NCBI RefSeq assembly: GCF_054482525.1
Contig: NZ_CM137006.1
Direction: 5' to 3' (one strand)
DNA length: 64,000 nucleotides
Shown here piece after piece: positions 33,265-33,863 of this stretch (positions are counted from its first letter, which is position 1; each line of letters starts with the position of its first letter). The translations under genes and the position numbers were made by a program. The notes below the pieces were generated by a model that saw only the letters and a program-made list of their open reading frames with translations, was not told the origin of the DNA and ran no database searches.

Positions 33265-33405
33265 CATCAACACCAACCGGAACCTCCACCACGTGCTCGA
33301 ATGAGGTGTGTTGACGTCGGGGGAAACCCTCCTGTGTACCAGCGGGATAGAGAGAAAGACAAAGACCGGAAAACAAACTAAAGCGCCCTTGTGGCGCTTT
33401 AGTTT
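33265..33405 (+). ncRNA. sraL: Candidate small RNA SraL (RyjA) in the ghxP-soxR spacer, ending at a terminator that overlaps the soxR 3' end
   Basis: Established location of SraL between soxR and yjcD in E. coli; plus-strand hairpin AAAGCGCC-CTTG-TGGCGCTTT plus T-tract at 33380-33408; possible -10 TACAAT near 33254; boundaries approximate. Confidence 0.35.
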
Positions 33406-33863
33406 TGTTCATCTTCCAGCAAGCGTGCGCCTGTGCCTTCTTCTCCTAAGCGGTCGCCCGGGTTACGCAATGGGCAATCACTGCGCGAAAGGCAGCCACA
33501 ACCAATACATCCGTCCAGTTCGTCACGCAGCGCCACTAAGGTATGAATGCGCCGATCCAACTCTTCTCGCCATTGGGACGAAAGCTGTTTCCACTCTTTC
33601 GCACTTAATGTATGCCCTTCGGGCAACACGCCAAATGCTTCACGAATGGTCGCTAGCGGAATGCCAATACGCTGAGCAATTTTGATGATTGCGACATATC
33701 GCAACACATCACGTTTATATCGCCGCTGATTGCCACTATTACGGATACTGCTAATCAACCCTTTGCTTTCATAGAAATGCAGCGCCGATACCGCCACACC
33801 GCTGCGTTTCGCCACTTCGCCGGGGGTTAGCAGCGCTTTAATGCGGGGTAATTTCTTTTCCAT
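33399..33863 (-). CDS. soxR: SoxR, MerR-family [2Fe-2S] redox-sensing transcriptional activator
   Basis: 154-aa ORF; C-terminal [16 protein letters not shown] cluster motif. Confidence 0.95.

Follow-up and report, generated by a model that had tools for sequence, protein, structure and literature searches.

At the 3′ end of soxR, a strong intrinsic terminator is encoded on the strand opposite to that gene and overlaps its stop codon. The question that this locus raises is what the terminator belongs to, and whether the transcript that it would end has any bearing on soxR. An earlier reading, made from the sequence alone, had proposed that the small RNA SraL (also called RyjA) is encoded here on the plus strand, in the spacer beside soxR and antisense to the soxR 3′ end, within positions 33265-33408 of the window, and had raised the possibility of antisense interplay with the soxR mRNA there. 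By the window we mean the whole stretch of DNA analysed, 64,000 nucleotides of contig NZ_CM137006.1 (RefSeq assembly GCF_054482525.1). We compared this region with Rfam, with other Escherichia coli genomes, with related loci across genera, and with the published literature.

A known small RNA gene between soxR and ghxP

When the whole window was compared with Rfam, the spacer returned, on its plus strand, a match to the sraL family, RF01408, over the full length of the model (positions 1-142 of 142; 153.3 bits, gathering score 39, E 1.1e-34). A repeat scan of 32700-34000 reproduced the sraL match, and a low-threshold scan of the same interval found no second RNA, only an echo of the palindromic terminator on the minus strand. 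The annotated ncRNA ryjA of E. coli K-12 MG1655 (b4459) is identical to the RNA of the window at all 141 of 141 nucleotides, and the K-12 record places it at 4277926-4278066, between soxR and ghxP and on the strand opposite to soxR (4277469-4277933). Given the covariance-model match and this identity, positions 33266-33406 of the plus strand are the known E. coli small regulatory RNA SraL/RyjA, a stand-alone gene of 141 nt. Across 221 aligned positions the window differs from K-12 by three SNPs (33211, 33220 and 33245), all of them in the 60 nt upstream of the RNA and none inside it.

The family match and the K-12 annotation agree with what had been proposed: the RNA is SraL/RyjA, it is encoded on the plus strand between soxR and ghxP and runs antisense to the 3′ end of soxR, and it belongs neither to the other strand nor to another spacer. 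The bounds first given were off by 1-2 nt. The raw sequence, read by itself, had thus sufficed to place a real small RNA correctly, along with its strand, its promoter and its terminator.

SraL/RyjA was discovered in 2001. The gene found here is therefore already known: it is annotated in K-12, an Rfam family exists for it, and two of its targets have been published. In its strand, its neighbours soxR and ghxP, its -10 box, its fold, its terminator and an 8-nt overlap with soxR, the locus in the window corresponds to K-12 ryjA and to the SraL family as known from Salmonella. The explanation that best accounts for the locus as a whole, and that is almost certainly correct, is an sraL gene with its own promoter and a strong terminator that holds the soxR stop codon, whose product would act in trans as the literature describes and whose terminator is probably shared with soxR.

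Among the records compared, ryjA is annotated only in the curated K-12 record. Two RefSeq records annotated by PGAP (NZ_CP006632.1 and NZ_CP151026.1) list no ncRNA between soxR and ghxP despite carrying sequence identical to ryjA.

The gene is nearly universal in E. coli. A 1.1-kb region around sraL is present in 5420 of 5426 complete genomes, and at positions 33220-33420 the sequence is at least 99% identical in 5398 of the 5420 matching records. Across the wider 1.1 kb, only 761 of the 5420 records reach this level, and the RNA is therefore more constrained than its flanks. For comparison across genera, a collection with one genome per species was scanned for an exact pattern, which gave 98 loci. 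One of these was a chance match in an archaeal metagenome-assembled genome and was discarded, leaving 97 real sraL loci, all from Enterobacteriaceae or from assemblies with sequence clearly of that family. The blocks CCGGAACCTCC and CGGGGGAAACCC are invariant in this set by construction, since both constituted the search pattern. Eighteen loci from 16 genera were also compared with Rfam, and every one (18/18) gave a full-length match to RF01408, at 110-165 bits.

A terminator between two convergent genes

The terminator hairpin occupies 33375-33405 (+) and has a perfect stem of 13 bp, six of them G-C pairs. Its first arm, AAACTAAAGCGCC (33375-33387), is followed by the loop CTTGT (33388-33392), the second arm GGCGCTTTAGTTT (33393-33405) and then TGTTCATCTT, with TGTT directly after the second arm. 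The sequence-only reading had drawn this structure as AAAGCGCC-CTTG-TGGCGCTTT; the core of that drawing stands, while the loop is one of five nucleotides and not four, and the stem extends 5 bp further outward. The core AAAGCGCC/GGCGCTTT is invariant in the 97 loci. Folded in isolation, the hairpin has an energy of -20.5 kcal/mol on the plus strand (z = -6.3), and none of 200 shuffled sequences folded as well.

On the opposite strand, and converging on sraL, lies soxR. Its coding sequence (33399-33863, minus strand, 154 amino acids, stop included) encodes MerR-family domains, and the gene is annotated as soxR in all E. coli genome matches. The stop codon TAA (33399-33401) sits within the 3′ arm of the hairpin, so that the overlap of the terminator with the soxR stop, as first claimed, is real. 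The 8 nt at 33399-33406 are common to the 3′ end of sraL and the coding sequence of soxR, and comprise the stop codon, the codon for Asn154 and two nucleotides of that for Gln153. The identical overlap is annotated in K-12 at 4277926-4277933. Read on the minus strand, the two arms of the hairpin each offer a stop codon: CTAAAG in the first arm gives TAA, and CTTTAG in the second gives TAG.

The hairpin is as stable in this second direction. Its folding energy on the minus strand is -21.8 kcal/mol, and z is about -6.5 on both strands. U-rich tails follow on either side, UUUUGUU on the plus strand and GUUUUCC...UCUUUGUCUUUC on the minus strand. Directly after the hairpin the minus-strand tail reads GUUUUCCGGUCUUUGUCUUUC, which falls below the scan criterion of 5 T in 8. 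The stability of the minus-strand fold and the U-rich GUUUUCCGGUCUUUGUCUUUC tail behind it argue that soxR, too, is probably terminated here, and that the hairpin is probably a bidirectional terminator common to both genes. Bidirectional intrinsic terminators between convergent genes have the arrangement seen between sraL and soxR: a single symmetric hairpin, followed on either strand by a U-rich tail. The richness in A upstream of the hairpin, from which the minus-strand U-tract would derive, shows no dependence on the distance to the soxR stop, the means being 6.2-6.7 A in 15 nt in all three distance classes, and thus does not discriminate.

The most serious alternative to a mere sharing of the terminator is that SraL acts chiefly in cis, as an antisense regulator of soxR. 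The 3′ hairpin of SraL would pair with the 3′ end of the soxR mRNA, or the converging polymerases would collide, RNase III would cleave, and stationary-phase sigma-S would thereby be coupled to the level of SoxR. This idea is not new. Viegas et al. noted in 2007 that the SraL terminator overlaps that of soxR, and speculated that RNase III makes its first cut there (PMC2190706). In an RNase III mutant of Salmonella, SraL appears as a single larger band at a higher level, and cleavage was suggested to occur inside the SraL terminator, the one overlapping that of soxR (PMC2190706). The overlap of the coding sequence is real, and should the soxR transcript end at the shared hairpin, its complementarity to SraL would extend to about 35-40 nt, all within the hairpin. 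Further, soxR is found immediately downstream of sraL, in convergent orientation, in 96 of the 97 species-level loci.

Against this stands the nature of the overlapping segment, which in both transcripts is a very stable self-complementary hairpin (at the energies given above), disfavouring pairing between molecules. Nor has the coding overlap been conserved. Of the 97 loci, only 17 have the soxR stop within the hairpin; it follows the hairpin by at most 8 nt in 35, and is 10-514 nt away in the other 45. The overlap is not maintained across relatives at the species level and is a lineage-specific feature. The parts of SraL that are both unpaired and best conserved fall outside the segment shared with soxR, and no report of an effect of SraL on soxR was found in the literature.

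Larger gaps between sraL and soxR are filled by REP-like and other repeats. Even within E. coli, the two genes are parted in 155 of 5426 complete genomes by a 178-nt insertion at the junction 33406/33407, between the sraL terminator and the soxR stop. The insertion is flanked by a 23-nt duplication, CCCTTGTGGCGCTTTAGTTTTGT, so placed that the complete sraL terminator and the soxR C-terminus are both preserved and neither gene is disturbed. One example is found at 790-967 of L003 (strain 19KM1831, NZ_CP151026.1). The inserted element (GTCCCCTCGCCCCTTCGGGGAGAGGGTTAGGGTGAGGGG...) is a multi-copy repeat, present at a median of 5 places per genome. In other genera, REP-like palindromes and other repeat elements of 50-150 nt separate the soxR stop from the sraL hairpin in loci L018, L019, L027, L029, L036, L056 and others. 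Small repeats seem to have landed repeatedly at the junction between sraL and soxR.

In Citrobacter sedlakii (L032, 698-1742), sraL is present at 149 bits, and soxR was not found within 1.6 kb downstream of it. There, sraL has been retained beside a different gene: a LysR-type open reading frame of 303 amino acids (698..1609) converges on it and stops within the terminator, so that the two genes again overlap by 8 nt.

The present comparison thus weakens the case for antisense interplay with soxR, and as the chief role of SraL we regard it as improbable. The overlap is specific to lineages and has repeatedly been broken by insertion of repeats, which speaks for a side effect of terminator sharing and against a conserved mode of antisense control. 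We infer that it arises mainly from convergent genes making use of one terminator, and not from a regulatory antisense device. The 3′ overlap of GadY with gadX differs in this respect: there the overlap is a functional pairing site, whereas that of sraL is evolutionarily labile.

A related proposal makes the shared hairpin a regulatory junction, at which the soxR mRNA ends at the sraL terminator and, in stationary phase, abundant SraL or convergent sigma-S-dependent transcription alters the soxR 3′ end or triggers RNase III. We consider this improbable as well. If it were true, the level of SoxR would be tied to the general stress response, and the repeat insertions would represent natural uncoupling variants.

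Whatever the regulatory value of the junction, the last codons of soxR lie inside the sraL terminator, and deletion or editing of one gene can therefore easily harm the other, a point of relevance to genome engineering. In the genome-reduced strain DGF-298, soxR lost 8 codons when ryjA was removed. This strain has a constitutively high SoxS iModulon, and the authors dismissed a link (PMC11481515). Known constitutive alleles of soxR include changes in the C-terminal part of the protein, for instance G143D (cited in PMC13223516). Because C-terminal SoxR changes can be constitutive, truncation of soxR may be the cause of the high SoxS iModulon in DGF-298. Truncations of the SoxR C-terminus are reportedly constitutive as well, a result ascribed to Nunoshiba and Demple in 1994.

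Promoter, fold and conserved parts of SraL

The -10 hexamer TACAAT, which the sequence-only reading had picked out, is present at 33254-33259 (+) and is followed by an A/T-rich discriminator, TAAA. It ends 6 nt before the 5′ end of the small RNA at 33266; the hairpin lies 121 nt downstream of the hexamer. Its pattern, TAnAnT, is kept in the 97 species-level loci and is correctly spaced from +1, the A, A and T each being conserved in at least 98%. A predicted promoter of its own and a Rho-independent terminator are thus both present and would frame a transcript of about 140 nt; sraL would be transcribed from this -10 box toward soxR and ended by the intrinsic terminator.

A putative upstream or promoter block extends over 33176-33265 (+). 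Homology between the window and the C. sedlakii locus runs through 32729-33135 and resumes at 33176, from where it continues through 33406, a GST gene having been inserted upstream in that species. Judged by this homology, the block has stayed with sraL in different genera, including where a GST gene intervenes upstream. E. coli differs from Salmonella and most other genera in having no GST gene between ghxP and sraL. A GST-like gene lies directly upstream of sraL in 76 retrieved loci, Salmonella included. A tblastn search for a GST remnant at 33135-33176 of the E. coli window found none, and the absence is clean.

Directly upstream of the sraL -10 box, at 33229-33250, lies an imperfect inverted repeat, CACTGGCG-N6-CGCCGGTG. 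K-12 differs within it at 33245 (C to T), and across genera the repeat is poorly conserved except for TGGCG. The spacer upstream of ghxP (32914-33125) carries two sites that resemble PurR operators, at 32968-32983 (AAGCAAACGTTTAGCT) and 33110-33125 (GCGCAAACGTTATCGT), a direct repeat, AAAAAAGCAAACG(T/A)TTA, at 32964 and 33007, and a sigma-70-like promoter on the minus strand (33049-33020, TTGAAA-18-GATAAT). These sites probably reflect purine control of ghxP. Across the window, the PurR operator consensus occurs at 3 sites, against 3.1 expected by chance.

The fold of the RNA was assessed on an alignment of the 97 sequences, onto which the Rfam structure was mapped. The 5′ domain (33267-33314, +) is closed by helix P1, in which 33267-33273 pairs with 33308-33314. 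Four of the seven P1 pairs show compensatory changes across the loci: pair 4-47 is AU in 78 and GC in 17, pair 5-46 is GC in 65 and AU in 27, pair 7-44 is AU in 65 and GC in 19, and pair 6-45 is CG in 82 and UA in 6. The central domain (33316-33360, +) comprises P2 (33316-33318 with 33358-33360), the GGG-GAAA-CCC tetraloop hairpin P2a (33320-33329) and P2b (33330-33347). All pairs of P2 and P2a are kept in 97 of 97 loci, the P2a columns being fixed by the search pattern. Compensatory changes are seen at two of the six P2b pairs, of which 69-78 is GC in 76 loci and AU in 8, and 68-79 is CG in 48, UG in 44 and UA in 5. The terminator is kept in every locus. A small hairpin at nucleotides 31-40 of the RNA is weakly supported, being paired in 52-73 of the 97 loci.

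Beyond the helices, a purine-rich and mostly single-stranded tract, GAAAGACAAAGACCGG (33354-33369, +), stands out. In the 97 loci its identity is at least 98% at 14 of 16 positions and at least 90% at the other two, and the tract lies outside the search pattern. In the Rfam consensus it is unpaired except for GAC. We infer from this conservation that the GAAAGACAAAGACCGG tract is the more likely functional site for the family as a whole, serving as a seed or as a contact for a chaperone or other protein.

This pattern of conservation bears on the suggestion that there is no separate RNA gene at all, the hairpin being merely the terminator of soxR and TACAAT a promoter-like hexamer that arose by chance. 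The hairpin would indeed suit soxR equally well, RefSeq records annotated by PGAP, apart from K-12, show no ncRNA at this place, and in a generic scan of the region promoter- and terminator-like sites were no more frequent than in shuffled sequence. The significance of the region accordingly comes from the covariance-model match and from homology, and the motif scan contributes none of it. Yet it is the entire 141 nt, well beyond the hairpin, that match a curated covariance model at 153 bits. Conservation across at least 16 genera takes in the 110 nt that precede the hairpin, where helix P1 shows compensatory changes. Moreover, Northern blots and RACE have revealed the transcript in published work on E. 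coli, Salmonella and Klebsiella. The detection of the transcript and the conservation of the part outside the terminator refute this suggestion, and we assign it next to no weight.

That the region instead, or in addition, encodes a small protein is just as implausible: open reading frames of 62 amino acids (33193..33381, +) and 88 amino acids (33146..33412, -) do exist mechanically, but neither has a Pfam match at E <= 1, the 62-aa frame begins 73 nt upstream of the transcript 5′ end, and conservation tracks RNA helices with paired compensatory changes and not codon positions, for which reasons we rejected it.

Expression, decay and targets

The literature, mostly on Salmonella, describes the near-identical RNA of Salmonella and E. 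coli as one of stationary phase, and the same would be expected of the gene in the window, where sigma-S-dependent transcription would cause it to accumulate. In Salmonella, the SraL promoter is directly dependent on sigma-S, as shown with an rpoS mutant and a lacZ fusion and by ChIP, in which enrichment exceeded 100-fold (PMC3753932). The RNA accumulates in stationary phase in both E. coli and Salmonella (PMC3753932, PMC2190706), and RyjA is among the RpoS-regulated small RNAs that are induced by starvation in E. coli K-12 (bioRxiv 10.1101/2024.06.20.599902).

Once made, SraL would be stabilised by the chaperones ProQ and Hfq. SraL is a ProQ-associated small RNA (PMC6315103, PMC7192607), and Hfq stabilises it about 3-fold (PMC2190706). 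Binding by Hfq is disputed: in E. coli, Wassarman et al. were unable to confirm it (as quoted in PMC2190706), and a Salmonella Hfq co-immunoprecipitation table lists 0 SraL reads. Removal would proceed by polyadenylation through PAP I, followed by PNPase and the RNase E degradosome, all of which have been implicated in SraL decay (PMC2190706). In agreement with this route, RyjA is polyadenylated, and its level is strongly increased in an E. coli pcnB mutant (PMC5389530).

Other trans-acting core small RNAs dependent on sigma-S, such as SdsR and GadY, resemble sraL in being stand-alone genes with their own -10 box, a weak -35 region, a Rho-independent terminator and, according to the literature, induction in stationary phase. 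SraL differs from them in being more structured, in being a reported ligand of ProQ besides its dependence on Hfq, and in its described targets, tig and the rho leader.

On these targets, according to published work, SraL acts in trans by short, imperfect base-pairing. Pairing just upstream of the tig Shine-Dalgarno sequence would lead to less trigger-factor mRNA. In Salmonella, SraL represses tig through 7 + 3 bp of pairing that lies a few bases upstream of the Shine-Dalgarno sequence, as verified by compensatory mutations (PMC3753932). Pairing with the rho leader over a putative rut site would prevent premature Rho-dependent termination, as reported in Silva 2019 according to the summaries in PMC6582626 and PMC12360218. 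Both lines of target work were carried out in Salmonella, not in E. coli. The antitermination at rho resembles that exerted by DsrA, ArcZ and RprA at the rpoS leader, the SraL case being known only from Salmonella.

In the E. coli sequences, the segment GUGCUCG of SraL (nucleotides 28-34; 33293..33299, +) is an exact 7-mer complement of CGAGCAC in the K-12 tig 5′ UTR, at -29 to -23 and just upstream of the Shine-Dalgarno sequence. This agrees with the published pairing; taken alone it is no better than chance, since 53% of shuffled small RNAs match a 7-mer. The conserved GACAAAGACCGGA tract shows gapped complementarity to the E. coli rho leader, without statistical support. Whole-molecule RNAduplex predictions against the K-12 tig and rho leaders were not better than those for shuffled sequences, of which 26% did as well for tig and 65% for rho. 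The duplexes so obtained were unrealistically long and had energies like those of the shuffles, and we discarded them as evidence.

Few parts of the RNA are less conserved in the 97 species than the segment that pairs with tig (33288-33299), and the small hairpin predicted there is poorly supported. Because the pairing segment is so poorly conserved, the interaction with tig may be restricted to certain lineages. The best-conserved unpaired tract of SraL (33354-33369) differs from the site published as pairing with tig, and the function common to the family may thus sit elsewhere in the molecule.

Apart from sraL, the window holds a full-length match to the Rfam family SECIS_2 at 12915-12969 (+), a selenocysteine insertion element (87.1 bits against a gathering score of 70), which presumably lies inside a formate dehydrogenase gene.
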